A stretch of 18,653 nucleotides of DNA from Candidatus Bathyarchaeota archaeon (GTDB lineage: Archaea > Thermoproteota > Bathyarchaeia > 40CM-2-53-6), in contig CAWHWX010000002.1 in assembly GCA_963833125.1 (NCBI GenBank), forward strand, positions 1 to 18,653, read 5' to 3'. Made by a program: the position numbers and the translations under genes. Positions 290 through 18,100 of this stretch are shown in pieces. The number at the start of each line of letters is the position of its first letter. Within the stretch, counting starts at the first letter, position 1. The notes under the pieces are model-generated. The model searched no databases. It saw only the letters and a program-made list of their open reading frames with translations, and was not told where the DNA came from.

Positions 290-1476
290 CTACCTAGCGG
301 TTAGTAAGTCTCCGTGTCCAGGTCCTCGGGGGATAATTGGCCAGATGTCGACAACTACCCCCCCCTCGACCACATGGTACGCATCGTAGAGGTTTACTGT
401 AGTTGGACCATACCCTGGAACGAACTCCATGGTACTTCCAAGTTTGAGGCTACATCGCTTGTCGACATCGAAGAGGGCATGCTCCTCCGCAAAGTAGCGT
501 GCCCGCATTTCAGATGGGTAATCCAACATCGTGGGTTGTACAAAGTCGATGCCGACTTGACTTACGACCGCAGTCAAATACGATTGTGTCTCCGTGCTGT
601 ATAACCACCGTTTCCCAGAACAGTCAGCGATTTCGGAAAGAACCCGGGACTAGGTTTCCATGGAAATTATCCTTCAAACGTAGGGTCCTCCCTTGAATCT
701 CAGTAACACGTGGATCTGCGCCCGTAATATCATAAGTACCAGTTCCGCCAGCCGAAACTATCTCACATTTGAACCCAGCCTCAGCTAGGCGACTGACTAC
801 CGTACCGATATGATCCATGGCTTCCCGAGCTTTCTTTACTCTCAATTCATGATCCGGTTCAAGCATACAATGTCCTGAGTACCCGCCTGCACGCCTCTGA
901 ACCTGAGGCCAGAAAGCGTAGCCAAATGTTTAGCCAGGTCTACGGCTTCATCTGGAGAACGAACACCTCCCCGCCGCCATTCCGACATCTATCTCGATGA
1001 TGACGTCAAGTTTGTTTCCCTACCTTAGAAACAGTCTTGGAGATGTCATCGGCATTATTCGCATCATCAACTGTGACCGTCAGGTGTCCATCTTTCGCAA
1101 CTTCGGCAAGCGTTTCGATTCTCTCCTTACCGACCACTGCAACTTAGCAATTAACACATCTTGGAGAGCGCCGCAGCTAATTACGAGGGCTTCCCAGACT
1201 GTGGCTGTGCAAACTCCGATCGCTCCCGCTTCATTTGCATTTTGGCTAATTCAATGCTTTTCTGGACCTTTATGTGAGGTCTCAGTTTAGCGTGCAGTGA
1301 TTTCAAACGTTGTGTCATGAAATTGATGTTGCGACGAACCACATCCAAGTCCAAGATCAATGCCGGCGTTATGAGCCCACGGCGATGTCTGCCTAACGCT
1401 GAACGGTATGAGTTGCATTAACCGCTTCTGAATTTCATCAATCTCTGGATAGGTTCTCGCACTTCGTTCGACTCAA
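290..1476 (-). CDS. DSD1/D-threonine aldolase-like PLP-dependent enzyme (alanine racemase fold), frameshifted; start approximate
   Basis: Joined fragments: ITPALILDLDVVRRNI..LRPHIKV (PLP Lys motif), AGAIGVCTATVWEA, IVSAGGTGTYDITG..VTEIQ (ORF 624-866), DCGRKS, AEEH..PTTVNLYD..VVDIWPIIPRG (ORF 290-577). Confidence 0.85.
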
Positions 1477-1550
1477 GCTAAACGGCTCTCAACGTCCATG
1501 GGAAATCTCTGGTAATAAGAACCATGGCTCAGGTTTTCGGGTTCAGACAT

Positions 1551-1683
1551 TCATCTAATGCATTCCGACTTACGGTAGTTAACAATCACCTTGGATCCTT
1601 CAACGGCGAATCTTCGGGTAATGGCGCTGCCGATTCCGGCGCAAACCACCAGTAACGATCGTGACTCTATCTTTCAATTTCAT
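1551..1683 (-). pseudogene. Truncated short-chain dehydrogenase/reductase (SDR) N-terminal remnant
   Basis: ATG at 1683 gives MKLKDRVTIVTGG, then after a 1-nt slip AGIGSAITRRFAVEGSKVIVNYRKS and a stop at 1551-1553. This is the TGxxxGIG Rossmann start, with no room for the rest of an SDR before the next gene. Confidence 0.75.
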
Positions 1684-1908
1684 GAGTTAGAAATCACCAG
1701 AAGGAGATGAGGTCTTTATTCTAAAATCTTCTTGGAAGATCTGATCCCATTAACATTCCTGATTGACAGATTGTTTTTGCTTCAATAAGAAAGCAGAAAC
1801 CGATTATTAATCAAGTAGCGAGTCCTCGCAACGTTCAATTTGAGGCTTGAAATAAACAGCATCATGCCAAGTGTTAAATATAGTTCGAAGAACCAGTTTC
1901 ATATCCGC

Positions 1909-3490
1909 TTGTCTACACAGAAGGTATTCCTACGGGAAGCAACTGGATTAGTTAGGTCATTCACATGGTATGATGCGACTATATTGAGCCTGGCCGTAAC
2001 AGGACCTACCCTGTTCGGAATGTCCTCCCAAATCGGCTACGTAGCCCCTAACGGACCTGGAGCCGACTTCACAATTTCCACAATCATTGGATTCCTGTTC
2101 ATGATCCCCCTCGCAGTAGTATACTACATCTTTTCGGTTCAGATGCCAAGATCCGGAGGGGACTATGTGTGGCTTGGGCGAACACTGAACCCAATTTTGG
2201 GATTTGTTTGGGGGATGGGCTATGTTCGGATTTTCATTCATTGCGCTTCTAGCAAGCGCATCTGTAACTGAAACCGCAGTCGTTATACCAGACGTAGGCG
2301 TAGCCTTAGGATACATCTGGAACAACCCAGGACTAATTTCCTGGGGACAGAATTTCACAGAGTAGTACGACAAATCTATTCGCTTGGGACGATCCTCACG
2401 ATAATTATTGGGATTATTATCGCCGCTTGCACGCCAAGGGTTTACAGTCGTATTATGCTCGTTTTAGCTGGAATAATCTTCATTGCCTCTTTCATCTTCA
2501 TCGGCGCCTTCAGACGCAGACAAGTGCCTCATTTGCGACAGGGCTAAGTAACTTAACGAATGGAACCATGACGGTTAATGGAGTTGTATCTCAAGCCGCA
2601 GGTGGGCGGGTATGCCTTTCGTTCCGGTGAATCAGACCGCCACTTTCCTAGCAGTCCCATTTGGGGTCTTGCTATTCAACGGATTCAATTATTCCGTCTA
2701 CATCTCTGGCGAAGTAAGGAATGTGAAGAATGGAATGCTATGGGGTGTGATGGTTGCACTATTGATCTGCGGAATTGTCGATATAACGGGACTCTACTTC
2801 ATAACAAACCGCCGGAAAGCTACCCATTCATGCAAGCAGTGTTTGGGTTATTCAACCAGGGTCACTTCTCCCTAGGAGTTAACCCATCGTAGCCCGTTTT
2901 CATCCCAGCAGTCCTAAGCAACCCATACCTATGGAGTTCGTGGAGATCGGATTTCTATTATTCAACTTCTGGTGGGCCGCAGGCCTCGCCATCTGCATCT
3001 CGAGGTACGTGTTCGCATTCTCATTCGACCGGGTACTTCCAACCGTTTTCGCAGATGTGAACGATAGACTCCACGTCCCGTTGAAAGCGGTCGGGTTCAC
3101 TTTCGTAATTTCAGTCATCCTAACCTACATCGCCATATACACGACATACATCGGACAGCTGCTCAATGTGGTTACGATTTGGGCCGTCGTCTGGATTCTG
3201 GTAGGAATATCGGCCATTGTCCTTCCATTTTGGAAGAAAGGATTCTCCAAGGGTCTCATTGGCGATCTTTGGTTACTTCCAATCTTTGGCGTTCTAACAA
3301 TCATAGGCATGGGAACTACCCTCTACTGGTCTGTGACAAACCCTGCAATTGGGCCCTCGACTCCGGCCTCGACCCTCCTGCTGGTCGTGATATTCCGATC
3401 CGCTGTCGTCATCTACCTAGCGCGATACTTCTACTTCAAGGGCAAAGGTCTTGACCTTATAGAGGGCCAAATGGAGATACCACAGAATAA
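1909..3490 (+). CDS. APC-family amino acid/polyamine permease, frameshifted
   Basis: TTG at 1909 gives (M)STQKVFLREATGLVRSFTWYDA; MPRSGGDYVW; YISGEVRN; SRYVFAFSFDRVLP; many TM segments across ORFs 1840-2271, 2612-2875, 2931-3614. Likely true end EIP(P)E* at TAA 3488-3490. TTAAATA box about 30 nt upstream. Confidence 0.88.
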
Positions 3491-3584
3491 GAAGACCAAC
3501 AGAGCGAACAAATCTAAACTCTCCCGCCTTAAGGTGCGTCATCGGTCAATGCCGTCGATGCACCGTACGTTATTTTTCGGTCAG

Positions 3585-4059
3585 CTAAGTCTTGGAGAAG
3601 GGTGGGCGTTCTAGGATTTCTCTGATCTCGGACGTAATCTGAACGTCTTTCTCGTATGTAATTCTAAACACCCATCGGAGCAGGTCGCGCTGGGATATGA
3701 TGCCGACCAGTTTTCCTTTCTCAACCACAGGTAGTCGCCTGACGCCGTGTTTGAGCATTGCAGCCATTGCTTCCTGGTTGGTCGACGGAACGTGCTACCG
3801 TAATCAGTGGACCTGACATTACGTTCCTAACTGGAGTTTTGAGAGCATTTGTTCGTTTCGCCACGTACCGTGAGATATCACGTTCTGTGACGATCCCCAC
3901 TGGTGTCCCTTCTTCAACGACTACGATGCTGCCAATATTCCGCTTCACCATTTTCTGCAATGCGTACTTCAGCGATCGCTTTGGTTCAACGGTCTCAACC
4001 CTAACTGCCATAAGAGCTTCCACTGAGTCTGAATCAACCACGTCAGGCAAACCCGTCAT
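3585..4059 (-). CDS. Stand-alone CBS-pair protein, frameshifted
   Basis: ALQKMVKRNIGSIVVVEEGTPVGIVTERDI and MLKHGVRRLPVVEKGKLVGIISQRDLL. Start placed at ATG 4059 because a TTTAAT box lies 25 nt upstream. Confidence 0.88.
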
Positions 4060-4083
4060 CAACACACTGGCGCTTTCATCGGG

Positions 4084-4100
4084 ATTAAAGGCTTCTTGGG
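4084..4100 (-). promoter_or_regulatory. BRE/TATA promoter of the CBS gene
   Basis: Minus strand CCCAAGAAGCC-TTTAAT ending 25 nt before ATG 4059, consistent with a near-leaderless archaeal transcript. Confidence 0.5.
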
Positions 4101-4290
4101 AAAACCTAAGTCTACGACTACTAGGGCTCTTTTTTGCGAGCTGCAAAAAAAAGGTCGTCCGTCCGAGAAACGTCTTACGGAAGCAAATCCAGGAAATCGT
4201 GTAACCTAGACCGGAAATTTGGATTATAGCGGGTTACGAGGCGTCTTTTATGTTAGGGCGTCTCTCTTGGCCGAGTTGGTGTTGAAAGAG

Positions 4291-4563
4291 ATGCTCCCTG
4301 TGGATTCAGCTAGGGTGGGTCATAAACGGCAGATCGTTGTTGAGGTTCTAGGATGGTATGGATTGATCGCTATCGTAATTGCCTATGGGACCGTGAGTCT
4401 GAGCTTGGTTTCGCCGAATAATTTGGCATATCAGTTCTTGAATCTAAGCGGAGCCGTAGGGCTTGGCCTAGTAGCGTTCGCTAAGAGGGCGTATCAAAAT
4501 GGCGTTCTAAATGTGGTTTGGGGTGCAATAGCTGTCGTGGCTTTGATACATCTAATTCTCTGA
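4291..4563 (+). CDS. Small 3-TM membrane protein (CBU_0592-like); start 4291 or 4315
   Basis: LGWYGLIAIVIAYG..YQFLNLSGAVGL..KRAYQNGVLNVVWGAIA matches the GWxG..AY..YQxLNLxG..LNxxW pattern. Confidence 0.75.
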   Translation: MLPVDSARVGHKRQIVVEVLGWYGLIAIVIAYGTVSLSLVSPNNLAYQFLNLSGAVGLGLVAFAKRAYQNGVLNVVWGAIAVVALIHLIL

Positions 4564-4602
4564 CCTCTGCCGGCGAAAACAGCTGTATGGTTAAGGGAAT
4601 TT

Positions 4603-5497
4603 TCAGTATGCGCTGGTCGGTAAGAACTTCTCTACTCGTTTCCTGAGCTCTATAGCGGCTTTTGACCATTTCCCGTCGCACACATTGTTTAGGTAACTGT
4701 CATTCTCAAATTCGAGCGAGAGATACCCACGGTACCGAGAATTTCGTAGGGCCATGAAGAACTTCTTCCAATCGACTACTCCCTCGCCAAGAAATGGGAA
4801 AATGAAGGTTTCTCCAAGGCCACCCGGTTTCCCGAAGGCATCCTTCACATGTACATGTCGCACTTTATCACCGAGCATTTTCGCCGCCCAAACGGGGTCA
4901 TTTCCATACACCACAAAGTGAGATGGATCCCAGGTTCACTCCAAGATACTTGGAATCAAAGTAACTCAGAAACTCCTTAACAGTATAGTAGTCGTGCACC
5001 AACATTCCGAATACAGGTTCAACCGTAACCACGACATGATTCTTCTCCGCCGAGTCGACTAGATTAGAAAATGAATCGACAACAACCTTCCAAGCTTCGC
5101 CTTCCGAGATTTCCCGACCAATCCTCTGAAACTCAGGATTCCAAGTCATCGGTCCCGTGAAGACGTTCATCAAGGGGATGGATAATTCGCTCGCTTCCCC
5201 CAACATAGCGGTCAAGACTTTCAGACTCCTATTCCTAACGCTACGATTCTTTGTTACGAGATCCTGCCAACACATTATGTTCGATACGGCGAGGCCACGT
5301 CTTCTCGTTTTGATGACCAGCTTTCTGAGTTCCCTGGTAGTCCGGAAATGCTGACCTAGCATCCATTCTACACCCGGCGGTACCCTGCTTTCGAGATGAC
5401 GCAGGATGGCTTCGTCAGTTGACGGCGAAGCCCAAACCGCCGGGGAAGTCATGTAGTAAGGGATGAATGATAACTTCCAGTCGGAGGCTCTTGTCAA
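4603..5497 (-). CDS. Sugar phosphate isomerase/epimerase, xylose-isomerase-like TIM barrel, frameshifted near 4930
   Basis: Metal-site motifs VEP, N(L)DPSH after frame correction, HVHVKD, GEGVVDW, GYLSLEFE (ORFs 4898-5497 and 4603-4914). Confidence 0.85.
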
Positions 5498-5501
5498 TTT
5501 T

Positions 5502-6347
5502 CTAGTAAGAGCCTCCTATTTCCTTCGCGACGAGGCCTATTTCTGTCAGACATTTTTCATCTTCCGCTTTCTCGCCTAAAGTAAAATGCGTCATCCCAGC
5601 GTCCACATACTGTTCAACGTCTCTCCGAAGAGTCTGGATGTCTGTTCGGTTGATTAAGTTCGTAAATGCAAATTGGTCATGAGGATATTTTCGCTTGCTC
5701 AACTCGTCGAGGATTACTTTTCCCATTTCCGCATATTCGTTAGGTTTGGGGTAGCTATCGTCGAACCATCTCGGGCCTATCGGCATCCATCCATCCGCAT
5801 ACTTTCCCGCCCACGTGAAGCGACACTGGTAGATGTCCCCCCCACCAGATTGGTGGATAGGGTTTCTGAATTGGTTTAGGCTCGAGAGCGGCACCCTTTG
5901 CGTTTACATATTTCCCATGGAAATCCACCGACCCCGGCTCGGTCCATAAGCGTTTCATCAATCGGATTGCTTCAAGGCTAAACGGCGATTCTCTCCTTAT
6001 TCTCATGCCATTCGGAATACCCTTCGAACTCAGGCCGGTACCACCCAAACCCCACTCCAACTATCAGGCGTCCATCAGACAGGTAATCTATAGTTGAGGC
6101 CATCTTTGCTAGAATACCCGGCGGTCGAAATGTGAGAGGTGTAACGGCCGTTCCTAATCTGAGTTTGACGGTTTTCGCGGCCGAAGTAAGGGAGGAAGGT
6201 CCAAACATCGATATGATTGTTTGAGTTTGGGAGCATGAAATGATCTGTTACAAGAAAATAATCATAACCCACTTTTTCGGCTTCCACTGCGAGTCTTTCG
6301 ATGAGCTTCGGTTTTGCCCGTCCAGTGACAGCTATTCCACACTTCAA
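5502..6347 (-). CDS. Luciferase-like (LLM) flavin/F420-dependent oxidoreductase, frameshifted
   Basis: AEKVGYDYFLVTDHF, AAKTVKLRLGTAVTPLTFRPPGILAKMASTIDYLSDGRLIVGVGFGW, PKPIQKPYPPIWWGG, ADGWMP across four ORF fragments. The stop lies 4 nt before the isomerase start. Confidence 0.9.
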
Positions 6348-6384
6348 TCCACATACCTCGCTGAAGGAGGTCGATGTAGACTAA

Positions 6385-6400
6385 GGCTAATATACAAAGC
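6385..6400. promoter_or_regulatory. AT-rich TATA-like element in the 84-bp divergent intergenic region
   Basis: TAATATA at 6388-6394 lies about 40 nt from both start codons (6347 minus, 6432 plus). Confidence 0.45.
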
Positions 6401-6431
6401 GAATCGCCTGTCTTCTACGAGATGACAACCT

Positions 6432-6926
6432 ATGCCCACACCAGTCCCATCTGGAATGAGGATTACTCAGGTCGCGGTAGTTGTGAAGGATTTACGGAAA
6501 ACGATGGAAGCATATCACAAGATTCTCGGTTGGGGGCCCTGGAGTGTCTACGAACATAAACCCCCAATCCTGCACCACCAAGAACTCCATGGAAAATCGG
6601 CTAACTATTCCATGCTTGGCGCGGAAGTCCACTGTGACCCGATCGACTTCGAGATACTGCAACCTTTGGAAGGACCGAGTATCTACAAGGAGTTCTTAGA
6701 AGAGAAAGGTGAAGGACTGCATCACGTTTCGGTTGTTAGCCCTGCTGAGGATGTTGAAAAAGCACTCGCCGATTTCAAGAAAAACGGCGTTGACGTAATG
6801 ATGAGCGGAAGGCTAGGTGAGAACATCAGGTTCTACTACATGGATACTGAGCCAGTTTTGAAGATGGTGGCTGAGACCGTCAGTGGTCACGCGATTTCTA
6901 TGAAGCCCATCTACACCTACCCTTGA
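6432..6926 (+). CDS. VOC (glyoxalase/methylmalonyl-CoA epimerase-like) family protein
   Basis: Intact 164 aa: ITQVAVVVKDL, FEILQPLEGPSIYKEFLEEKGEGLHHVS, FYYMDT..VAE. Confidence 0.9.
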   Translation: MPTPVPSGMRITQVAVVVKDLRKTMEAYHKILGWGPWSVYEHKPPILHHQELHGKSANYSMLGAEVHCDPIDFEILQPLEGPSIYKEFLEEKGEGLHHVSVVSPAEDVEKALADFKKNGVDVMMSGRLGENIRFYYMDTEPVLKMVAETVSGHAISMKPIYTYP

Positions 6927-6984
6927 CATTCATCCATCGAAAATAGAAGCAAGCGCCGTAACAGACAAGCCCGAGGAGATCGAG

Positions 6985-7686
6985 ATGTCTGATTTCAGCC
7001 TACCAGGCGTTGAACAACGAATCATTGATGACTTGGCGAGTAAAACGGTTGAAGTAGCTCGTGGATTGTTTGAGAACCACCTAGTAACCTCCACATTCGG
7101 TGTCGTGAGCAATCGAATCCCCAACACCGACTATTCACTGATTACTCCGAGCGGGTTCAGCAAACTCACACTCAATACCCGCCATCTGATCATCGTAGAC
7201 CTAGACGCCAAACTTGTTCAAGGAAATTTCAGGCCATCCGTAGAAACCGCCATGCATACTTACATACACAAGAATCGGCCCGAAATCAGTACGGTGATTC
7301 ATACGCACTCACCGATGGCCTGCGCGTTTGCAGCCGCTAACATGGAGATTCCATGTGTGTCAGCGGAACAAGCATTCTACCTTGGAGGCAGAGTACCTCT
7401 GGTAAGGAAATATTCACTTCCCGGCACAACGGAACGTGCGGAGTTAGCGGCGGTCCTCAAGGCGCTCGAGAAATGTGATGCCGCTCTCCTGAGGAAGCAT
7501 GGAGTCGTTGTTGTCGGAAGGACCCCCGAAGAAGGGTTGGAGACCGCGATAGTGCTCGAGGACATTGCCAACATGGCCGTCCACTCAATGATTCTTGCGA
7601 AACCTAGGGAGTTCACCAGAAAGGAACTATCCTACTTGAAGGTCTTCAAACGAACGAGGTATGGACAGCATCCTTCTGCAAAATGA
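6985..7686 (+). CDS. Class II aldolase/adducin family (FucA/AraD-like) Zn enzyme
   Basis: Intact 233 aa: ITPSG, PSVETAMH (FucA-type catalytic Glu), HTHS and KHG Zn ligands, C-terminal YGQ; GAGGAG RBS. Confidence 0.9.
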   Translation: MSDFSLPGVEQRIIDDLASKTVEVARGLFENHLVTSTFGVVSNRIPNTDYSLITPSGFSKLTLNTRHLIIVDLDAKLVQGNFRPSVETAMHTYIHKNRPEISTVIHTHSPMACAFAAANMEIPCVSAEQAFYLGGRVPLVRKYSLPGTTERAELAAVLKALEKCDAALLRKHGVVVVGRTPEEGLETAIVLEDIANMAVHSMILAKPREFTRKELSYLKVFKRTRYGQHPSAK

Positions 7687-7711
7687 CCCTTACCCTAGGG
7701 CATGAGTCAGT

Positions 7712-9275
7712 TTGAGCAATGACTATCTGGCCGCAATAGACGCGGGAACGGGCAGCGGTAGGTGTGTAATCTTTGACTCGGAGGGCACACAAGTTGCGAT
7801 TGCTTCGAGGGAGTGGTCGCATCCTACGATCCCGGCGTATCCTGGAGCTTTTGTGTTTGACACCGTGCGCAATTGGAAGCTTATTTGCGAATCAATTCAC
7901 GAGGCGATTGATAGGGCTAAGATTCGGCCCGATGAAATTCGTGGCATAAGCGCGACCAGCATGCGTGAGGGCATGGTGCTCTATGATGAGGTTGGCAGTA
8001 GAAATCTGGGCCTGCCCGAACGTCGATTCGCGCGCGAAGAACGAAGTTGTCCAGATGATTAAGAAGGGTCTCGCTAAGAAGATCTACTTCAAGGCTGGGG
8101 ACTGGCTCGCGATTACCTCGCCTCCAAGATTCCTTTGGATAAAGAAACACGAGCCAGAGATCTTCAAGAAAACTGCAAAGATGACTATGATTAGCGACTG
8201 GATTCTTTACAGGCTGACAGAGAAATTTGCTACCGATCCTTCGATTGGCTCAAGCTCAAATCTGTTTCAACTCGAAAAAAGGACTTGGTCGGACGAAATC
8301 ATCGACTGGTGTTCCCTACCTAGAAGTATATTTCCGGACGTAAAGGAACCGGGAACAGTGCTAGGAGATGTCACGGCTGAGGCCGCCGCCGAGACAGGTT
8401 TCAAACTGGGAACCCCTGTAGTCGTAGGTGGGGGCGACACTCAGCTCGGTCTTATCGGTATATCCGCCGTTCAACCCTATGATTCCGCCACAATTGGCGG
8501 AACGTTCTGGCAACAAACGGTTGTCACAGACAAACCGATCATAGACCCGAAGATTCGATTGCGCACTCTTTGCCACGCAGTTCAAGGAATGTGGATGACA
8601 GAGGGAATAGGGTTCCTATGTGGATTGACAATGAGATGGTTTAGGGACGCGTTTTGCGAACGAGAAAAGGAAATTGCGGCTCGGGAAGGAGTTGATGCAT
8701 ACTCTTTGCTGGAAAAAGAGGCCGAAAAAGCGGGTGCCTGGTTCGAACGGTGTCATCCCAATTTTCTCAGACATAATGAATGCTAGAAGGTGGATTCATG
8801 CCTCCCCTTCCTTTGTGCAATTCGACATCAACCGACCCGAGGCATCTGGCAAGAAAGAGTGCGTCAGGGCGATTGAAGAGAGCGCGGCTTATGTGGCGTT
8901 GGGCCATCTGCAAATATTGCAAGCTCTCACCCATAGAAAAATGAAACAAGTTGTATTCTGCGGGGGGCATCGAAAGGCTTCCTGTGGCCCCAAATATTAT
9001 CAGACGTATTTGGTATCACGGTCAAGGTTCCGATAATCAAGGAATCTACGGCCCTAGGCGCGGCAATTTGCGCGGGAGTGGGCGTCGGGATATTTCGGAA
9101 CCTGAAAGAGACTGCGAAGAGCATGGTCAAATGGGACCGGACCTTCGAGCCCAATCAGACCACCCATAGAGAATACGTGAAATTTTACGGCCGATGGTGC
9201 AAAGTGTACAAGAAGTCGTTAGGGATGGTTGAAGAAGGTCTGGTGCAGCCGATGTTCAGGGCCGCCGGAACATAG
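7712..9275 (+). CDS. lsrK: Autoinducer-2 (DPD) kinase LsrK homologue, FGGY family, frameshifted
   Basis: LsrK-characteristic strings: YLAAIDAGTGSGRCVIFD, SMREGMVLY, IWACPNVDSRA, TMISDW, GTPVVVGGGDTQLG, GGTFWQQ, GLTMRWFRDAFC, GVIPIFSDIM..WIHASPSF, C-terminal GLVQPMFRAAGT. Confidence 0.82.
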
Positions 9276-9384
9276 ATCGAAGATCCTAGAATGAAACTCA
9301 TACGCGAACTTGAAATTGACTTGGAATACGAAGCGGAGAATGGCTAAAGAACTAGCCTGCAACTATTGACCAGCTGAGAAAGAA

Positions 9385-10404
9385 ATGGCGACCATAACCG
9401 AAGTACAAGAAGTACCGCAAAACGACTACGCAAAGTACGGCCTAACGAAGGATCTCTTACGTGAAATGCTCAGGAAGATGCTCATTATCAGAAAGTTCGA
9501 GGAGAAAGTCGAGGAACTATTCATTGTCAAAGGGTTATTGATAGGCCCATCTCACCTGTACCTAGGCCAAGAGGCGATAGCGACAGGCGCAATGATGGCG
9601 CTTCAGCCCAACGATTTAACGGTAACCACATATCGCGGCCACGGACACGCTCTTGCCAAAGATGTTCCGTCCAACCTCTGCATGGCGGAACTTTTCGGAA
9701 AATCAACGGGTAACTGCAAAGGGCTAGGCGGCTCCATGCACGTTGCAATCTACCCCAAAACGGGTTCCATTTACGCCACGGCTATAGTTGGTAGCGGAAT
9801 ACCCATCACCGCCGGGGTTGGGCTAGGCCTCAAACAAAAGAAGACAAAGCAGATTGCCGCCACATTCTTCGGCGACGGTGCTTGCAATACTGGCGCGTTC
9901 CATGAGGGTGTAAACCTCATCGCCCTTTGGAAGCTACCGGTTCTACTATTCTGCGAGAACAATCAGTACGGAATGTCCACCAATGTCAAGATGTCAGTTT
10001 CAAGCCCAAGCATCGCTGAGAGAGCCCGCTCCTACGGAATGGAAACGACGGTTGTCAATGGAAATGATGTTGTAGCGGTATACGCCGCAACCAAATCCGC
10101 TGCTGAAAAGGCCCGCAGAGACTCCACCCCAACGTTCCTTGAATGCCTAACTTACAAGATGAAAGGTCACGGAGTCTATGACAAGGGAGAATATCGTCCC
10201 AAGGAAGAAGTCGCGAAATGGCTCGAACGCGATCCTATTCTTACATTCAAGAAACGGCTCCTAGACCAGAAGATCATGACAAAGGCAGAACTTGAACAAC
10301 TCGACGCGACAACACAACAAGAAATCGAGGACTCGGTTAAATTCGCCATGCAAGGTTCACCTTTACCTTTCGACGAGATCGGAAACTACGTTTACGCAAA
10401 GTGA
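9385..10404 (+). CDS. TPP-dependent dehydrogenase E1 alpha (acetoin/pyruvate dehydrogenase-type)
   Basis: Intact 339 aa: [34 protein letters not shown] motif, RDPI. Confidence 0.95.
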
Positions 10405-10409
10405 TACCA

Positions 10410-11388
10410 ATGAAAGAACTCACTTATGCTGACGCACTCCGTGAAGCGCTGCGCGAAGAAATGATCCGTGATCCGAACGTGATACTTCTCGGGGAAGAAA
10501 TCGGCGTCTTCAACGGGGTCTACAAGGTTACTAGAGGTTTGCTCGACGAATTCGGGCCTGAACGTGTTAGGGATACTCCAATCTCAGAAGCAGCCATCAC
10601 TGGGGCGGCAGTGGGTTTGGCGTTGGCTGGCATGAGGCCCGTAGCCGAAATCATGTACATGGATTTCCTCCCCATATGCATGGATCAGTTGTCTACCCAA
10701 GCTGCAAAAATGCGCTTCATGAGTGGAGGTCAACTCCAGGTACCCATGGTCTTGAGAACCCAATACAGCCTCGGCCTGCAAACATGGATCACAGCACTCA
10801 CAATTCACGCCCGCTTGGTTTCTGCAGGCACCAGGATTGAAGGAAGCATTGCCCGCTGATCCAAGCGACGCTAAAGGCCTACTGAAGTCAGCAATACGAG
10901 ATCCCAACCCAGTCCTCTTCGTAGAGAGTGGCCTACTCTACCGAACTAAAGGACCAGTACCCGAAGAAGAATACCTAACCCCTCTCGGACAAGCAGCCGT
11001 GAAGAAGAAGGGGAATGATGTCACAATTGTAGGAGTTTCAAGAATGGTTAATGAATCTCTCGCAGCCGCGAAAAAACTTGAAGATAATGGCGTCTCAGCT
11101 GAAGTCATAGAGTGATAACAATACAACTGCTCGACCTTGATACAATCGTCGAGTCAGTTAAACGAACTTCCAGGCTGGTGATCGCATCCGATGATGTAAA
11201 GAGAGGTGGCGTGGGAGCCGAGATCTCAGCCTCAGTCACAGAGGCGGCCTTCGACTACTTAGATGCACCAATTACACGGGTCGCATGCCCGGACATGCCA
11301 ATACCATTCTCACCCTCCCCTCGAGCAGCAGTATATGCCCAACGCAGCGAGCGTAGTCCAAGCCGTCCAAACCATATTGGGCAAGTGA
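10410..11388 (+). CDS. TPP-dependent dehydrogenase E1 beta, frameshifted
   Basis: [35 protein letters not shown] after frame correction, [32 protein letters not shown]; stop TGA 11386-11388. Confidence 0.93.
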
Positions 11389-11394
11389 TTCATC

Positions 11395-12556
11395 TTGACG
11401 CAAGTTGTGATGCCGGCTTGATCCTGGAATGCAATCAGGCAAGATAGTTGAATGGCTGAAGAAGGAGGGCGAGTTGGTTAGAAAAGGCGAACCCATACTC
11501 GTCGTAGAAGGAGAGAAAACCACATTCGAAGTTGAAGCTCCAGACAGCGGCCCCTTAACCAAAATTCTAGCCAGCATCGGGACAGATGTCCAAGTTGCCG
11601 AACCAATCGCAATCATCGGAGAAGCCGGATCGGCAACACCCCAATCAGTACCAAACGAGAAAACTGAGCAAGAGCGACCACAGCAACCTTCTCTGTCCCT
11701 GCCTCCGGAACTCCGTCGGATCGGGTAATTGCATCTCCCGCAGCACGGCGTTTAGCCCAAGAATACGGACTCGACCTAACCTCCCTAAAGGGAACTGGCC
11801 CAGGTGGCCGAAAAACGCGGGAAGATATCCTCGCAGCAAAACAAAGCACACCCGCATCGCAGTCTACCCAAATCCTCTCAAAGATGCCTCAACCCGCCGT
11901 TCTAAAGAGAACGAAACTCGCAGGGATCAGAAAGGCTGTAGCCGAAAGACTTTCGTTCAGTGTGCGAACAGTCGTCCCAGTCACGATTACCATCGAAGCA
12001 GACGCCACGAAACTATTGGCGATGAAAGAGCAGAGCCACGTTGGGTTCTCAGCTCTCGGAGTAAAAGCAGCTGCAAAAGCATTGGGTGACCATACCGATG
12101 TTAACTCAACAATAGAAGGCGACGAAATTACAAATTACTCTGACGTAAACGTCGCCGTAGCCATACACACCGAACAAGGCCTAGTTGCACCTGTAATCAG
12201 GAATGCAAACAAACTATCTCTGAAGGAGATTAGCTCAACGATTGAAGAGCTCGCCAAGAAAGCTGCCGAGAATCGCCTAACAATTGAGAACTTGACTGGC
12301 GGAACATTCACGGTAACCAACCTCGGCGCATTCGACGTCGAATCGTTCGCACCCGTCATCAACCCTCCTCAATGCGCAATTCTTGGTCTGGGCCGAATCG
12401 CCTACAAACCATTCGCCAACGGAAGTCAGGTATCCGGCTAGACCATCAACCCTACTAACACTAGTTTTCGATCATCGAATTATCGATGGTGTCCCGGCGG
12501 CTAAGTTCCTAAGGGACCTGAAACGTAATCTTGAGGAACCGGAAGGCCTGCTCTAA
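11395..12556 (+). CDS. Dihydrolipoamide acyltransferase E2 (one lipoyl domain, PSBD, catalytic domain), frameshifted
   Basis: Lipoyl domain EWLKKEGE..VEGEKTTFEVEAP; PSBD ASPAARRLAQEYGLDLTSLKGTGPGG; GGTFTVTNLG, PVINPPQCAILG; catalytic FDHRIIDG near 12465-12490; stop TAA 12554-12556. Confidence 0.92.
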
Positions 12557-12596
12557 CTCCAACCTTCGATCGACGGATTATCGAGTATCTAGAAGC

Positions 12597-13657
12597 CTAC
12601 TTTGTTGGCGGACGCAAGGCTATCTTCAATGCCTTTCCGCTTCCCATCAACTGAAGAGCTTCCTCAGCCCGATCAAGAGGCATCTCGTGGGAGATTAGCG
12701 GTTTTATGGATACCCGCCCCGACACGATCAATCGGAAGGCCCGTTCAACTGAGGAAGGTGTATGGTGGAACGCTCCTTGAACGTGCAATTCGCCATAGTG
12801 TATCCTCTCCGCTTCGAATGAAGCCATCGTCCCTGACGGGCATCCGCCAAAGAGGAGGATTGTCCCGCCCTTTCGTGCTAGACCCGGAGCCGCGTCCCAA
12901 GTTTCACGTCGGCCAACCGCTTCCACGACCATATCAGCTCCTCTCCCGTCAGTTAGCTCACGGACCCTTGCTACGAGATCCTCAGTTGACGAGTTTATCG
13001 TTACATCCACTCCAACTCCCTTAGCCTCCTTCAACCGGTCTTCCACGAGATCACACAATGCCACCTGACGTGCACCGTTGAGCCGGCGAGTTGGGCATGT
13101 AACAGACCTATCGGGCCACCACCGATGATTACGACAGTTGCTCCGGCAGGTAGGTCCTTAGTAAGGTCCCACCCGTGAACGACGCAAGCCAAAGGTTCTA
13201 GACTGGCCACAGTCTCGAGTGGCACGCCCTCCGGCACCTGAAATGTATTCTGCCGAACTATTTTTTCTGGAACTCGAATATATTCAGCGTACGTCCCTGG
13301 CCAAGTGAACCCAATTATGCTGTCATTCAAATGCTCGCACAGATTCGGTTGGTGCAAGAGGCAGTAGAAGCATCGATTGCAAGGGGCTGTGTTCGCAGCA
13401 ACCACTTTCATCCCAACGCTAAAGTTTGTGACCTCTTTGCCGAGGGCGGAAACGGTTCCGGCGAATTCATGTCCCATTATCTGGGGCGGTTTTGCGAGTA
13501 GGTGCCCGTGTTTGTACATCTTAACATCTGTGCCGCATGTCAAAGCGACGGCGCTTTTCACAATCAATTCTCCCGGTTCAGGTTCAGGCACAGAAACTTG
13601 TTCCACTTTGAGATTACCGGGTTCGTAGAACCTAACTGCGAGCATTGTGTTTGCCAT
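12597..13657 (-). CDS. Zn-dependent medium-chain dehydrogenase (polyol/threonine dehydrogenase-like), frameshifted near 13080
   Basis: LTCGTD, GHE, CNRCFYC..C, EPLACVVHG, GGGPIG, acidic DLVEDR (NAD preference); GAGGAGGT RBS. Confidence 0.92.
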
Positions 13658-13728
13658 GAATTGATTCTTAACCTCCTCTGGTTAGTTGATATTTAGCTCC
13701 GCTGCAACTGACTGGGCTTCGCAGTCTC

Positions 13729-14756
13729 TCATTCGTTCTCAACCATTATCTTAACCGCTTCCCCCGCATTCTCCGCGAGGCGAAGCGCGTCTATTGTTCG
13801 AGCGAGCGGGAACCTGTCCGTAATGACCTCTGATGGTCTAACTCGTTTACTCTCGATCAGTTGCATTGCCATTCGCATTTCAGTTTCGGATGTGGAGTAG
13901 CTCGACTGAAACCGTACTTCTCGGAGAAACATCTTACTCATATCCAGTGACATCGTCGCGCCTCGTGTTGGTGCGCCGAACAGAAGGACTGTTCCTCCTT
14001 TACGAACCGTGGCAAACGCTGATTCTAGCGCTTTCAAGTTGGCGGTTGCGACAATCGCATAATCAACCCCGAGGCCTCCGGTTAATAGGGAAATTGTCTT
14101 AGGGGCGTCGTCGGTTGTTGGATCGAATGATAAATCGGCGCCTAACTTGGTCGCGAAATGTCTACGTTGCTTAATCACATCAATAGCGTATACGGGTCCG
14201 GCCCCGAAGCATTTCAGGAGTTGTACATGAGTCAGACCAACTGGACCCAGACCATATATCGCGACACTGTTACCCACAGAAACGCCAACCTTACGAAGTG
14301 CTCGGATGCAACATGCTGTGGGCTCTGCCTGTGAGCCTTCCTCGAAACTCATGGAATCAGGCAACTTGTACACCGTTCCCCCGTTCACTAGCGCCTTTGG
14401 AACCCTGAAATATTCCCGAACCCGCAAGGATCGAGATTGCTTTTCGGATATTCTTCGCAAAGCGTTTCGAGGCCGTTCTTGCAAAAGTAGCAGTGGCGGC
14501 ATGACACATGATGGTGTACGACGACTCGATCGCCGACAGCAAAGTCTTTGATTTGTGTTCCGGCTTTGTGTATTACTCCAGATACCTCATGTCCAAGGAT
14601 GGGAGGAGTAATGTGTTCTCCATGAACCTTCTCCACATCAGTCCCGCAGATCCCACACGCTCGCATAGCCACGAGTATCTCGTCGGGATTAATCTCAGGC
14701 GTAGGGAGGTTCTGAATCTGAACCGTTCCATTCTCTTGGATGATTACGGCTTGCAC
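13729..14756 (-). CDS. Zn-dependent medium-chain dehydrogenase, frameshifted near 14420
   Basis: CGICGTD, GHE, HHHVSCRHCYFC..C, EPTACCIRA, GLGPVG, DVIKQR. Confidence 0.92.
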
Positions 14757-15433: not shown

Positions 15434-18100
15434 TCAGCTTAGCTTCAGCTCTGCAAAAACATTCTCCTGTTCTCTCCGGATGGAGCAGCCAAGTTTTTCG
15501 CAGAGTCGGATCATCCTGAGATTCTCACCCATCACTGTACCATAAATCGATTCAATTCCTTTCTCCTTAGCGAATTCAATTAACATATCGACTAACTTGA
15601 CACCCAGACCCTTTCCCTGATATTTGTCGGCAACCACGACTGCGAATTCGCCCCGTTTCTTGTTGGGTTCGAGAATTAAACGGCTTACTCCGATCTCCAA
15701 CGTTCGGTTTCCTTCTCGGGTTTCCGCGATGATTGCCATCTCCCTGTCGTAGTCGATATTGCAGAAACGGACGAGGGCCTCATGTGGGAGGTCCTTGATT
15801 ATTTGGAAGAATCTGAATCGGCTTGTTTCCGTCGACAAGCCTCTTATGAATTCTAACTCTATGGGTTCGTCTTCCGGTTTTATGGGCCTTAGAGTGACTT
15901 CGGTCCCATCTTTCATTCTCCAGGGCATGACATATTTTGACGGGTAGGGTGTGATTACCAAATGGGGGTAGGGTTCGGTATGGTCGAGAGCGCGAGGATC
16001 AATAATCATCCTTGCGTCGAGAACGGAGAATTCACCCTTGGAGGCGATGAGTGGGTTGATGTCCATCTCAGCGATTTCGGGGAAGTCAACGATGAGATTG
16101 GAGAACCGTACCATGATCTCTTCGAGGGGTCGTATGTCGACGGGTTTCTTGTTCCGTAGACCTTTCGTAAGCGCTTTGAATATCTTTGTTTCTTCCATGA
16201 TGCGATGTGCGAGAATCTGATTTAGCGGCGCGAGTCCGAGCGAGACATCGTTAATGAGTTCAACTCCTGTCCCGCCCATTCCAAATAGAATCACAAATCC
16301 AAAATCCTTGTCCTTTTTCGCGCCTAGGATGAGTTCGTAGTCGATCTCAGATGCCATTTTTTGCACATAGATACCATCGATTTTAGCTTCAGGTTTGGCT
16401 TTGTGGGCTCTATCGATAATGGCCTTGTATGCATCCTTGACCGCTTGAGCTGAGTCAATGCGGGTAACGACTCCCCCAATGTCTGTTTTGTGAAGAATGT
16501 CTTCGGAGGAGATTTTCAACGCTACTGGGTAACCGATGTCTAACGCGATCATGGCCGCTTGGTCTGCGCTTTTGCTCAACGCACCCTTCGCTCTTGGGAT
16601 TGCGTAGGCGTCGAGGAATCGGTCAACTTCAGATTGATTGAGGGCTTTCCCGTCTTCGCTGCCTTGCGAATCAGTACTTTGAGATGGCTCTTTGGCGGAG
16701 AGAAGTCCACTTGTAATTCTTGTGGGGTTTGGTAGAGCTGGTCGAGGTTTCTTCTGTATTGGTACATGTACGTGTAGGTCTTTATCGCTTCTTCAGGCGT
16801 TGGGTAAGTCGGGATGTCGTTACGGTGGAATATTTCGCGACTTTCCCTGACGCTGCTCTCGCCCATCCAGACCGTAAGCATTGGTTTGCGTCTGTCCGCG
16901 GCGATTTTCGTAACGGCTTCGGCGAGCGGGGCGGGTTGACTCGTTCCTTGGGGAGTGTAGATTACAAGGAGTCCATCAACATTCGGATCCGCAATGCAGG
17001 TCTTCACAGCGAGTTCATACCGAGAGACGTCAGCGTCCCCTAGTATGTCGAGTGGATTTCCTCGGCTCCAGTATGGAGGAAGGGCTCCATTCAGTATTTT
17101 CATGGACTCGTCAGACAACTGTGCTAGTTGGCCACCATGAGTGACAATTGAGTCAGCTGCTAAGACCGCTGGTCCTCCAGCGTTGGTGACTATGGCTAAG
17201 TTCGGTCCCGCTGGCAGAAACCTTGAGTCTAGGACGGTGGCGCAATTGAAGAGGTCTCCAATTTCGTCGACCATCACAACGCCCGCTCTCTTGAAGGCGG
17301 CCTCGTAGACTGCGAAGTCACCCGCTAGTGCGCCTGTGTGTGAGGATGCTGCTTTTGCGCCAGCAGAGTTTCTTCCCGCCTTGATTACAATAATAGGTTT
17401 TGTGCGTGCAAAGCCTCTGGCCGAACTCATGAACTTCTTGGCGTTTCCGACGCCTTCCATGTAGATGATGATGCTCCTAGTGTTTGGGTCCTCGCCAAGG
17501 TAATCGATCATATCCCCATAGTCGATGTCTAGGGTCGATCCTAGCGAAGCGAAAATGCTGAAGCCTATGCCCGTGCTTACCGCCCAGTTGACTATCGCAG
17601 ATCCCAATGCTCCGCTCTGTGAGATGAATGCAATTTGGCCAGGTTGAGGGTTGTCTCTCAGGAACGTGGCATTGAGAGCTACCTGTGGCCTCGCCACGCC
17701 CACACAGTTTGGTCCTAGAATTCGAATGTCCTGCAGCGATTGAATTTGCTTAATCTCGCTCTCTAGTTCGACGCCTTCAGCTCCGATCTCTCGGAACCCG
17801 GCCGAAATGATGACGGTGCCTTCCACGCCAGCCTTCGCCGCACTCCGCTACTATGGACGGTACAGTCCTTGCTGGTGTAGCGATTACAGCCAGATCGATG
17901 TGTTCTGGTATCTTGGATATCGATGGGTAACACTTCAATCCCATGACGGTATCCTTGTTTATGTTCACTGGGTAGATTTTCCTGCGATCCTTGCCCAATA
18001 GTAGGTTTCTTGTCAGAGATTGACCGATCGATCCCTCGCTCTCAGAAGCCCCGATTATAGCAACGACTTTGGGGTTCAGCATTTTCTCGATACTGGCCAT
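15434..18100 (-). CDS. ADP-forming acyl-CoA ligase (alpha+beta) fused to C-terminal GNAT acetyltransferase (Pat-type architecture), frameshifted
   Basis: VAIIGAS..IYPVN; ILGPNCVG, ISQSGALG, ASSHTGALAG, NPLDILGDA; IGYPVALKISSEDILHKTDIGGV, EMDINPL; GNAT LRPIKPED..IDYDREMA..EFAVVVADKYQGKGLG. Confidence 0.93.

Follow-up and report, generated by a model that had tools for sequence, protein, structure and literature searches.

An LsrK-family FGGY kinase in a Bathyarchaeia chromosome and the catabolic genes around it

The DNA analysed here, referred to as the window, is a stretch of 18,653 nucleotides (nt) that constitutes the entire contig C2 of the Candidatus Bathyarchaeota archaeon genome G000 (3.07 Mb, 39 contigs; 87.8% complete, 7.0% contamination). 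At positions 7712–9275 it carries a gene, interrupted by frameshifts, for a kinase of the LsrK family, a branch of the FGGY kinases. LsrK commits the widespread bacterial signal autoinducer-2 (AI-2) to uptake and destruction, and to our knowledge all of its characterised examples are bacterial and reside within lsr operons. The archaeal gene is conserved among relatives, stands in a cluster of catabolic genes and has no lsr partners nearby. The interpretation that we favor, with modest confidence, is that it encodes an LsrK-family FGGY kinase of a Bathyarchaeia chromosome, that its frameshifts are most likely assembly errors, and that the cluster degrades 4,5-dihydroxy-2,3-pentanedione (DPD), the AI-2 precursor, or a close analogue.

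Results

Reading frames and family assignment of the kinase

The region 7712–9275 is not a single open reading frame (ORF). The ORF listing contains frames of 116 (7712–8062), 273 (7965–8786) and 120 amino acids (8674–9036), and a fourth, stop-to-stop frame at 8937–9275. The kinase homology spans four frame segments of the + strand (7712–~7998, ~7999–8739, 8740–8961 and 8962–9275). NF008187, the NCBIfam autoinducer-2 kinase profile (521 positions, equivalog cut-off of 528 bits), matches the four pieces colinearly, and together they cover profile positions 3–520. None of the pieces alone reaches 528 bits, and their plain sum of 630 bits is a rough figure only.

Segment 1 (7712–7998; NF008187 122.5 bits, profile 3–95) begins with a TTG start codon at 7712 and comprises the N-terminal part of the Pfam domain FGGY_N (39 bits), with the DAGTGS phosphate loop and the motif SMREGMVLY. 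Segment 2 (7999–8739; 303.5 bits, profile 96–342), in frame +1 with respect to segment 1, completes FGGY_N (117.7 bits) and enters FGGY_C; it contains IWACPNVDSRA, GGGDTQ, GGTFWQQ and GLTMRWFRDAFC. Segment 3 (8740–8961; 78 bits, profile 340–424) holds PIFSD..RWIHASPSF and matches FGGY_C with 16.5 bits, below the cut-off. Segment 4 (8962–9275; 126.1 bits, profile 418–520) is the C-terminal part of FGGY_C (27.5 bits) and ends with the stop codon TAG at 9273–9275. PIFSDIMNARRWIHASPSF is likewise found among the LsrK motifs in the window frames. The two-domain FGGY_N and FGGY_C architecture of ~520 amino acids is therefore present in the window pieces, and the intact orthologues are 518–521 amino acids long. 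A first-pass annotation of this DNA had described the protein as LsrK-like along its whole length; the likeness is real and all of the motifs quoted there are found, but the region is not one frame and the three frameshifts went unmentioned.

The nearest solved structure is that of E. coli LsrK (5ya0, 396.8 bits), followed by a xylulokinase with 106.6 bits. On the longest window piece the next NCBIfam family is XylB with 117.8 bits, and the ribulokinase and fuculokinase models score only 29–82 bits. The intact orthologues P0002, L013 and L014 align to NF008187 with 668.9, 686 and 680 bits, respectively, above the cut-off (five loci, 669–686 bits), whereas on the XylB model TIGR01312 the intact orthologues reach 224.7–233 bits against a cut-off of 380.25. 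The orthologues at loci L011–L016 are 45.5–48.6% identical to E. coli K-12 LsrK over the full length. With the E. coli and Salmonella LsrK structures (5ya0–5ya2) the archaeal kinase thus shares the FGGY two-domain architecture, a length of ~520–530 amino acids, this degree of identity, the clade and the family-specific residues described below. It differs from E. coli LsrK in belonging to a separate subclade, in its archaeal host, in the absence of lsrR, lsrACDB, lsrG and lsrF nearby and, in the window copy, in its three frameshifts.

The LsrK-family clade has a support of 100 in each of three trees (two FastTree trees, of 124 and 102 rows, and a quick-mode IQ-TREE tree of 51 rows). Inside this clade an E. 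coli group (support 100) is separate from a large group that holds all archaeal rows (support 99–100), and the Bathyarchaeia form a clade with a support of 99 that is distinct from the E. coli clade. The first-pass placement of the protein with LsrK rather than with XylB or GlpK agrees with the structure match, the profile scores and the trees, and the phylogeny and subfamily assignment that it called for locate the kinase inside the LsrK family yet apart from E. coli LsrK.

Family-specific residues were sought in an alignment of 50 LsrK-clade rows with the 73 nearest other FGGY rows, specificity being defined by conservation and not by a substrate complex. Seven positions, W99, C101, F265, W266, Q267, W360 and H362, are all present in the window kinase and occur in 41–50 of the 50 LsrK-clade rows and in 0–2 of the 73 others. 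The respective counts are 43/50 and 0/73 for W99, 44/50 and 0/73 for C101, 47/50 and 1/73 for F265, 50/50 and 0/73 for W266, 48/50 and 2/73 for W360, and 42/50 and 0/73 for H362. D105, R107, G263, G304 and W309, which are also among the quoted residues, are general to FGGY kinases. Of the strings that had been quoted as typical of LsrK, the residues W99, C101, F265, W266, W360 and H362 are therefore specific to the family while the latter five are not.

A search of a protein-cluster atlas gave only generic 'autoinducer-2 kinase' clusters, mostly bacterial, and does not place the subclade; Agromyces proteins annotated as 'FGGY family carbohydrate kinase' fall in one related protein cluster.

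Origin of the frameshifts

The window kinase departs from intact copies by an additional base near 7998, another near 8739 and a missing G in the G-run after 8961. Relative to the intact L011 ORF these two inserted bases and one deleted base are the only disruptions of the frame. When the window kinase is read in the frame of this orthologue, dN/dS is 0.094 and dS is 0.60 over 519 codons.

An uninterrupted frame is found in the orthologues and, at each of the three sites, in public contigs, and not in the window. The extra bases near 7998 and near 8739 are both absent from C3, another short contig of G000, and from a public contig of run X1; at the second site a contig of run X3 stops at 8738, beyond which its sequence is C3-like. 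At 8961 the window has a run of 6 G, and both C3 and contigs of runs X1 and X2 have one of 7 G. These public sequences come from four runs, are all Logan contigs rather than reads, and are 95–99% like the window. Their cover is patchy (X1 29 of 30 bins, X3 15 bins), and one of the runs is possibly the source of the window itself.

The genome G000 holds three versions of the window region, of which C2 is a redundant strain-variant copy; such redundant copies probably add to the 7% contamination figure of the genome. C2 aligns to positions 88612–107231 of the 520-kb contig C16 with 97.6% identity, 349 mismatches and 81 gap openings, and 73 of these 81 indel events are of a single base. It is 90.6% identical to most of C3. 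C2 and C16 are identical over window positions ~6500–10500 (~4 kb), including the kinase and its three shifts. Elsewhere, their genes for E1 beta, E2, both dehydrogenases, the permease and the LLM oxidoreductase (all described below) are broken at different places with respect to the intact orthologues. The genes of C3 are mostly intact; its copy of the kinase lacks all three shifts of the window and carries two at other places. ORFs of at least 300 amino acids cover a fraction of 0.185 of C2 and 0.698 of C3; for C16 this measure is too blunt, as the windows at 80–110 kb give 0.53–0.58 against a genome median of 0.59.

The three kinase frameshifts are most probably consensus errors in a region of mixed strains, given that 11 relatives have intact single ORFs, that public contigs undo the shifts and that dN/dS is low. 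The gene of the population would most likely encode an intact protein of ~520 amino acids under purifying selection, and the apparent breakage is probably a matter of assembly and not of biology. Alternatively, the gene might be a true pseudogene, whose function this strain recently lost through the three frameshifts within a decay of the whole cluster. The identity of the three shifts in C2 and in the much longer C16, the frameshifts in many neighboring genes of both contigs, the location of two of the three indels outside homopolymers, and the accessory nature of the kinase in the genus, where 12 of the 22 other species lack it or gave no match, would all fit such a loss. The low dN/dS in a frame disrupted by three indels only argues otherwise, as do the shift-free public contigs and the different shifts of C3. 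Because C2 and C16 are 100% identical over ~4 kb at the kinase and differ elsewhere, they represent one shared consensus and not two independent observations, and their single-base indels, placed differently within the coding sequences of each contig, fit consensus error. A genuine loss of function, if very recent, is conceivable for this strain because the public contigs are 2–3% divergent and because C2 and C16 are not independent; we nonetheless consider the pseudogene explanation unlikely.

Archaeal location of the gene

The sole small-subunit (SSU) rRNA of G000 matches the archaeal model with 1424.5 bits and the bacterial model with 1045.7 bits. This match (C12, positions 52720–54269) spans 1550 bases against the 1478 positions of the model, and the gene may hold an insertion. 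Six close relatives of the kinase in species genomes (L011–L016) are 72–89% identical to it, and five of them are titled Candidatus Bathyarchaeia or Bathyarchaeota. The sixth, L014 (DATIYC010000038.1; G500 contig C38), is titled 'Candidatus Acidiferrales bacterium' and carries the same cluster. Its contig number (C38), coordinates and score are those of a locus of G438, a genome grouped in the genus of the window; the two are probably the same genome and the bacterial title a mislabel. The congeneric genome G448 is assembled in three contigs, the 1.57-Mb contig C1 of which holds both the cluster and a gene for TFB, a family that among 14 control genomes matched only the 4 archaeal ones.

The first-pass annotation had taken the context to be archaeal and named a chimeric or bacterial contig as the finding that would overturn its reading; the rRNA, the Bathyarchaeia relatives and the TFB-bearing contig instead sustain the archaeal context. 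Bacterial contamination, or a chimera binned into an archaeal metagenome-assembled genome (MAG), might be suspected from the shortness of the window (18.7 kb) and its lack of a marker gene of its own, from the 7% contamination of the MAG and from the 'Acidiferrales bacterium' title of one near relative. The same region lies, however, inside the 520-kb contig C16 and on the 1.57-Mb contig of the congeneric genome, 10 of the 22 other species in the genus carry the gene as well, as do genomes of two further genera within the order, and the 'Acidiferrales' record is apparently G438. Contamination is therefore regarded as extremely improbable.

Neighboring genes in the window and in related archaeal loci

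The kinase is part of a series of six genes on the + strand in the order VOC protein, class II aldolase, kinase, E1 alpha, E1 beta and E2, an order that is kept in L011–L016, L036, L038 and L042. The VOC (glyoxalase-superfamily) protein (6432–6926, +) is intact with 164 amino acids. Its nearest structure is 3gm5 (56.6 bits), labelled 'lactoylglutathione lyase and related lyases', and its L013 orthologue matches Pfam Glyoxalase_4 and Glyoxalase. Across the Bathyarchaeia loci it is 84–98% identical.

The class II aldolase of the AraD/FucA family (6985–7686, +; 233 amino acids) is also intact and ends 25 nt before the start of the kinase; its L013 orthologue matches Pfam Aldolase_II with 155.3 bits. 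It adjoins the kinase in 9 of the 10 archaeal loci with upstream sequence, the exception being L039. It scores 159.9 bits on NF005123, a subfamily of L-ribulose-5-phosphate 4-epimerases, below the cut-off of 251, and its nearest structure is E. coli AraD (1jdi, 70.4 bits); all matches to named families are below their cut-offs. The pair resembles AraB–AraD and FucK–FucA in that an FGGY kinase stands directly beside an enzyme of the class II aldolase fold. It differs from them in the very low scores of the kinase on the ribulokinase and fuculokinase models and in an aldolase that falls below the cut-offs of all named families.

Downstream of the kinase lie the components of a 2-oxoacid or acetoin-type dehydrogenase. 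E1 alpha (9385–10404, +; 339 amino acids), dependent on thiamine pyrophosphate (TPP), is intact; its nearest structure is human pyruvate dehydrogenase (PDH) E1 alpha (196 bits). E1 beta (10410–11385, +) occupies three frames in the window, with pieces of 149.5, 90.9 and 61.2 bits on NF006667; it is a single ORF of 325 amino acids in L013–L016 and runs mostly in one frame in C16 and C3. The E2 dihydrolipoyl acyltransferase (11414–12529, +), also in three frames in the window, has lipoyl, E3-binding and catalytic domains, as does its intact L013 orthologue of 389 amino acids (Biotin_lipoyl, E3_binding and 2-oxoacid_dh). These genes share with acetoin and pyruvate dehydrogenase complexes the TPP-dependent E1 alpha and beta and a lipoyl E2 with E3-binding and catalytic domains. 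Unlike in PDH complexes, E1 alpha scores 347.8 bits on TIGR03182, below the equivalog cut-off of 393.85, no E3 gene is found within the window, and an LsrK-family kinase lies upstream of these genes on their strand.

Two Zn-dependent medium-chain dehydrogenases of ~351 and ~341 amino acids (12603–14756, −; ADH_N and ADH_zinc_N), each split by a frameshift, come next. Their best NCBIfam matches, both below the cut-offs, are L-threonine 3-dehydrogenase (198.8 bits) and scyllo-inosose 3-dehydrogenase (200.2 bits). The aldolase and both dehydrogenases also accompany the kinase in the distant genome G339, where E1 alpha and beta are located 6–7 kb away. Upstream of the VOC gene, four genes present in pieces were recognized by their match to intact L011 ORFs: a pyridoxal phosphate (PLP) enzyme of the D-serine-dehydratase or BhcC-like kind (293–1414, −), an APC-family permease (1912–3482, +), a xylose-isomerase-like TIM-barrel protein (4609–5497, −) and an F420/LLM-class oxidoreductase (5505–6347, −). 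All four are syntenic in G448. At the far end of the window is a Pat-like protein in pieces (15440–18100, −), with an ADP-forming acyl-CoA synthetase-type domain and a GNAT acetyltransferase; it is intact in C16, C3 and L014 (at least 616 amino acids visible). Proteins with this architecture are known above all from bacteria.

A second, distant FGGY kinase, 24–31% identical to the LsrK-like kinase, occurs a few kb from it in L012 (1677–3191), L013/L034 (3254–4705) and L039 (7239–8735), and also on another contig of G000 (C19, 119981–121276).

Like the canonical lsr operon of E. coli K-12 or of a peat-soil Bacillus, the archaeal cluster is small and catabolic, with a kinase of the same family at its first intracellular step. 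The archaeal loci lack the ABC importer, LsrR repressor, LsrG isomerase and LsrF thiolase of that operon, and hold instead the APC permease, the VOC protein, the class II aldolase, E1 alpha/beta–E2 and the two Zn-dehydrogenases.

Sister clusters on metagenome contigs

A scan of metagenome contigs provided 80 kinase loci. Eight (L116–L123) belong to the enterobacterial clade, and all eight have LsrG beside the kinase, L122 carrying the full lsr set. The other 72 (L044–L115), on contigs from soil, peat and sediment, belong to the same large clade as the archaeal kinases; VOC accompanies the kinase in 46 of them and LsrF in 32, and LsrB is found in none. Among the 18 well-flanked sister loci, defined by at least 5 kb on both sides of the kinase, a PLP enzyme occurs in 15, VOC in 13, LsrF in 12 and an LsrR-like (SorC/DeoR-type) regulator in 8; LsrG and LsrB occur in none. 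A class II aldolase is present in only one of these 18 and never together with LsrF; 13 loci have one of the two and 5 have neither. The LsrF proteins tested pass the NCBIfam LsrF equivalog cut-off of 297 bits, namely those of L045 (485.4 bits), L064 (395.2) and L080 (385.1). Within the large clade the trees group the aldolase-type rows (Bathyarchaeia, support 99; L070 and L073) apart from the LsrF-type rows (support 97–98).

The L045 cluster (892–13704) contains, in order, two short-chain dehydrogenases/reductases (SDRs), a SorC/LsrR-like regulator, an APC permease, VOC, a further SDR, a D-apionate-lactonase-like protein, a 2-hydroxyacid dehydrogenase, the kinase, LsrF and a PLP enzyme. The lactonase-like protein (658 amino acids) is distant, with 262 bits against a cut-off of 750, and the PLP enzyme is like 3-hydroxy-D-aspartate aldolase, with 271.5 bits against a cut-off of 690. 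L064 (5803–17507) and L080 carry the kinase, VOC, LsrF, two SDRs, a 2-hydroxyacid dehydrogenase, a split transketolase and a sugar-acid dehydratase of the enolase superfamily. D-apiose pathways use split transketolases.

The domain of origin of these contigs was judged by comparison of their ORFs with G000, by G+C content and by NCBIfam scans, which give indications and no proof. L064 and L080 have a G+C content of 0.47–0.48, and 14–16 of 19 ORFs match G000 at ~50% identity (10 of 16 in L041, which is known to be archaeal). The two are probably archaeal, and their gene content would then be a second, LsrF-containing form of the cluster in archaea. Contigs of 70–74% G+C with 0–2 matches to G000 are probably bacterial.

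The metagenome clusters resemble the archaeal loci of the window type in their kinase clade (support 99), in their VOC proteins (46–77% identical) and PLP enzymes (44–59% identical), in their APC permeases and in the lack of LsrG and LsrB. They differ in carrying a true LsrF, in whose place the Bathyarchaeia have a class II aldolase, and, often, an LsrR-like regulator, as well as SDRs and a 2-hydroxyacid dehydrogenase.

Distribution and transfer

Genomes were searched with NF008187 at E ≤ 1e-100. A control E. coli genome scored below the cut-off of the profile and no control matched at 1e-100, so that the sensitivity of the search rests on the matches of 656–686 bits in relatives. Thirteen of the 105 genomes of the order match, G000 included; the matches comprise 10 of 22 other species of the genus, 1 of 10 genomes in a sister genus and 1 of 6 in another family. 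Eleven of the 105 genomes exceed 528 bits with single ORFs of 518–591 amino acids, and in G453 the match is partial and contains an internal stop. Of 400 other genomes in an even sample of the phylum, one matched (G339, 661.9 bits), and a second sample of 300 other genomes of the phylum gave none.

In archaea the LsrK-family gene is thus patchy and accessory, concentrated in one Bathyarchaeia genus, roughly half of whose species carry it, and this spread fits acquisition by transfer. Named bacterial carriers of LsrK include E. coli K-12, enterobacteria, Sinorhizobium, a Bacillus with the full lsr set and a Deinococcus plasmid. Such canonical clades in bacteria and the patchy archaeal spread favor transfer into archaea. 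The first-pass annotation had read horizontal transfer into the archaeal copy; the distribution is consistent with this, but the trees give neither donor nor direction and leave the order of the three main LsrK subclades open, and a single clade of 9 rows from archaeal genomes, a group named after the tree had been seen, is not rejected by the approximately unbiased (AU) test (p-AU 0.11).

Among 80 plasmid records with LsrK relatives none belongs to the clade of the window; all are below 60% identity and of the canonical kind (53 from Sinorhizobium, with enterobacteria and others). On the Deinococcus psychrotolerans plasmid (L125), an annotated lsrK is flanked by genes for an MFS transporter and a cupin, and no further lsr gene lies within 9 kb.

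Discussion

Proposed function of the cluster

We infer the substrate of the kinase, and every step after phosphorylation, from homology and gene neighbors. A small 1-deoxy-diketo- or keto-pentose, DPD or a close analogue, would enter the cell, perhaps via the APC permease. The kinase, using ATP, would phosphorylate the terminal hydroxyl and thereby trap the compound, in the manner of E. coli LsrK acting on the C5 hydroxyl of DPD. The VOC protein could then carry out the enediol-type isomerization that is the role of LsrG in E. coli; the VOC fold supports enediol-type proton transfers. Class II aldolases are metal enzymes that stabilize the enediolate of dihydroxyacetone phosphate (DHAP), and the aldolase of the cluster, possibly with the TPP- and lipoyl-dependent E1–E2, may replace the CoA-dependent thiolase LsrF and yield a triose phosphate and a C2 unit. 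It could, for example, cut a hydrated 2,4-dione into DHAP and a C2 acid. Instead or additionally, E1–E2 could cleave the methyl-ketone or acyloin end in the manner of acetoin dehydrogenase. The cluster would serve nutrient scavenging, with free AI-2 lowered as a by-product and without a quorum-sensing circuit. DPD can form abiotically from pentose phosphates.

The E. coli pathway described in PMC8016206 proceeds from LsrK, which produces phospho-DPD (P-DPD), through isomerization by LsrG to LsrF, which moves the acetyl group to CoA and leaves DHAP and acetyl-CoA. In the metagenome loci the kinase clade is repeatedly tied to true LsrF, never to LsrG and usually to VOC, which suggests that the kinase makes P-DPD or a very similar product and that VOC takes the place of LsrG. 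The VOC-fold protein is on this ground a candidate non-homologous replacement of the P-DPD isomerase, and the sister clusters with true LsrF may be taken to lean toward DPD-type chemistry. The first-pass annotation had named cross-domain AI-2 quenching and a different ancestral substrate as the two possible consequences of an archaeal copy; quenching would have to operate in loci that lack the lsr transporter, the regulator, LsrG and LsrF, and a different substrate is possible although the sister clusters lean the other way.

Several observations weigh against this interpretation. The only LsrKs so far characterised fall outside the archaeal clade. PMC8028047 presents the solved LsrK structures as open forms without substrate, so that homology and neighbors carry the substrate assignment. 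Searches with E. coli LsrR, A, C, D, B, F and G (tblastn) gave no match in the 8 archaeal loci searched. The best LsrF-like match in G000 is only 33% identical, lies on another contig and looks like an ordinary DhnA-type aldolase. LsrG (E. coli query) was not found in G000, where the 87.8% completeness and 7% contamination make any absence a weak one. The resemblance of the aldolase to L-ribulose-5-phosphate 4-epimerase and fuculose-phosphate aldolase would suit an ordinary pentulose pathway equally well, and LsrK-family genes occur in other odd settings, such as that on the Deinococcus plasmid. The three SDRs, 2-hydroxyacid dehydrogenase, D-apionate-lactonase-like protein and PLP enzyme of sister clusters suggest a longer pathway for some compound of which a DPD-like molecule is perhaps only an intermediate. 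As for the frameshifts, C2 and C16 carry exactly the same three, and the shift-free public contigs differ from the window at 2–3% of sites.

Alternative substrates and roles

The kinase could be LsrK-like by descent only, its substrate being an ordinary pentulose (for example L-ribulose or L- or D-xylulose) or a deoxy-pentulose (for example 1-deoxy-xylulose). The Zn-dehydrogenases would make the sugar from a polyol, the AraD-like neighbor would epimerize or cleave the product, and E1–E2 would be a separate acetoin or 2-oxoacid module. The best matches of the aldolase (NF005123, 1jdi and the fuculose-phosphate aldolases) accord with such a pathway, as do the resemblance of the dehydrogenases to polyol, threonine and inosose dehydrogenases, the lack of any lsr partner in the archaeal loci, the distance of the clade from the assayed LsrKs and the second FGGY kinase nearby in several loci. 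The intact orthologues, however, pass the AI-2-kinase equivalog cut-off and fail that of XylB, F265, W266, W360 and H362 are near-invariant in the LsrK family and missing or nearly so from the 73 other FGGY rows, and every match of the aldolase to a named family is below its cut-off. The sister clade, moreover, is coupled to true LsrF in two-thirds of its well-flanked loci (12 of 18), always without LsrG and often with the same VOC. An ordinary pentulose as the substrate is accordingly a serious alternative, to which we give a minority share of the probability.

The interpretation in which the kinase acts on DPD or a close analogue can be extended to a full DPD catabolism, run by this Bathyarchaeia genus and related uncultured microbes of soil, peat and sediment independently of the Lsr importer and LsrG. 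The class II aldolase, possibly with E1–E2, would cleave the C–C bond in the archaea as a non-homologous substitute for LsrF, and the true LsrF would do so in the sister lineages; this stronger version is rather doubtful. A role in true AI-2 sensing or quenching, in which the archaeon would import AI-2 to listen to or silence bacteria and phospho-AI-2 would act on a regulator, is far less probable and in our judgement very unlikely. The membership of the gene in the LsrK family, the LsrR-like regulators of 8 of the 18 well-flanked sister loci and the origin of the runs with near-identical sequence in sediment and peat metagenomes, which represent dense mixed communities, would be in keeping with it. 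Against these stand the archaeal loci, in which no LsrR-like gene, LsrB or Lsr ABC transporter was found and in which all neighbors are catabolic enzymes, and the genome G000 (87.8% complete), in which LuxS was not found. With no LsrR-like gene and no receptor in the archaeal loci, nothing in them points to a signalling circuit.

Relation to existing annotation and significance

The gene call itself is already part of public annotation, as PGAP and IMG name orthologues 'autoinducer-2 kinase' in two NCBI records labelled Candidatus Bathyarchaeia archaeon and in many IMG records. What is new here is the set of partners and the split between LsrF-type and aldolase-type clusters. A literature search found no paper on an autoinducer-2 kinase in Bathyarchaeota, on quorum sensing with AI-2 in Bathyarchaeia or on the combination of LsrF, LsrK and a glyoxalase, nor a description of E1/E2 genes following an LsrK-family kinase. 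The metagenome surveys PMC12781772 and PMC12503165 do not treat archaeal LsrK in the portions of their text available to this analysis; their supplementary tables may list archaeal lsrK hits.

Roughly half of the species in one Bathyarchaeia genus carry a conserved member of the LsrK family that is under purifying selection and is associated there with different partner enzymes. If its substrate is other than DPD, the 'equivalog' label of the NCBIfam AI-2-kinase profile, which is applied by PGAP and echoed by IMG, overreaches the evidence. If the substrate is DPD, the VOC-fold enzyme and the class II aldolase would represent novel ways of carrying out the LsrG and LsrF steps, and the "AI-2 genes in archaea" reported by metagenome surveys could be checked against a specific pathway. 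In peat, soil and sediment, where such archaea are abundant, they would then remove a bacterial signal and act as its cross-domain sinks.

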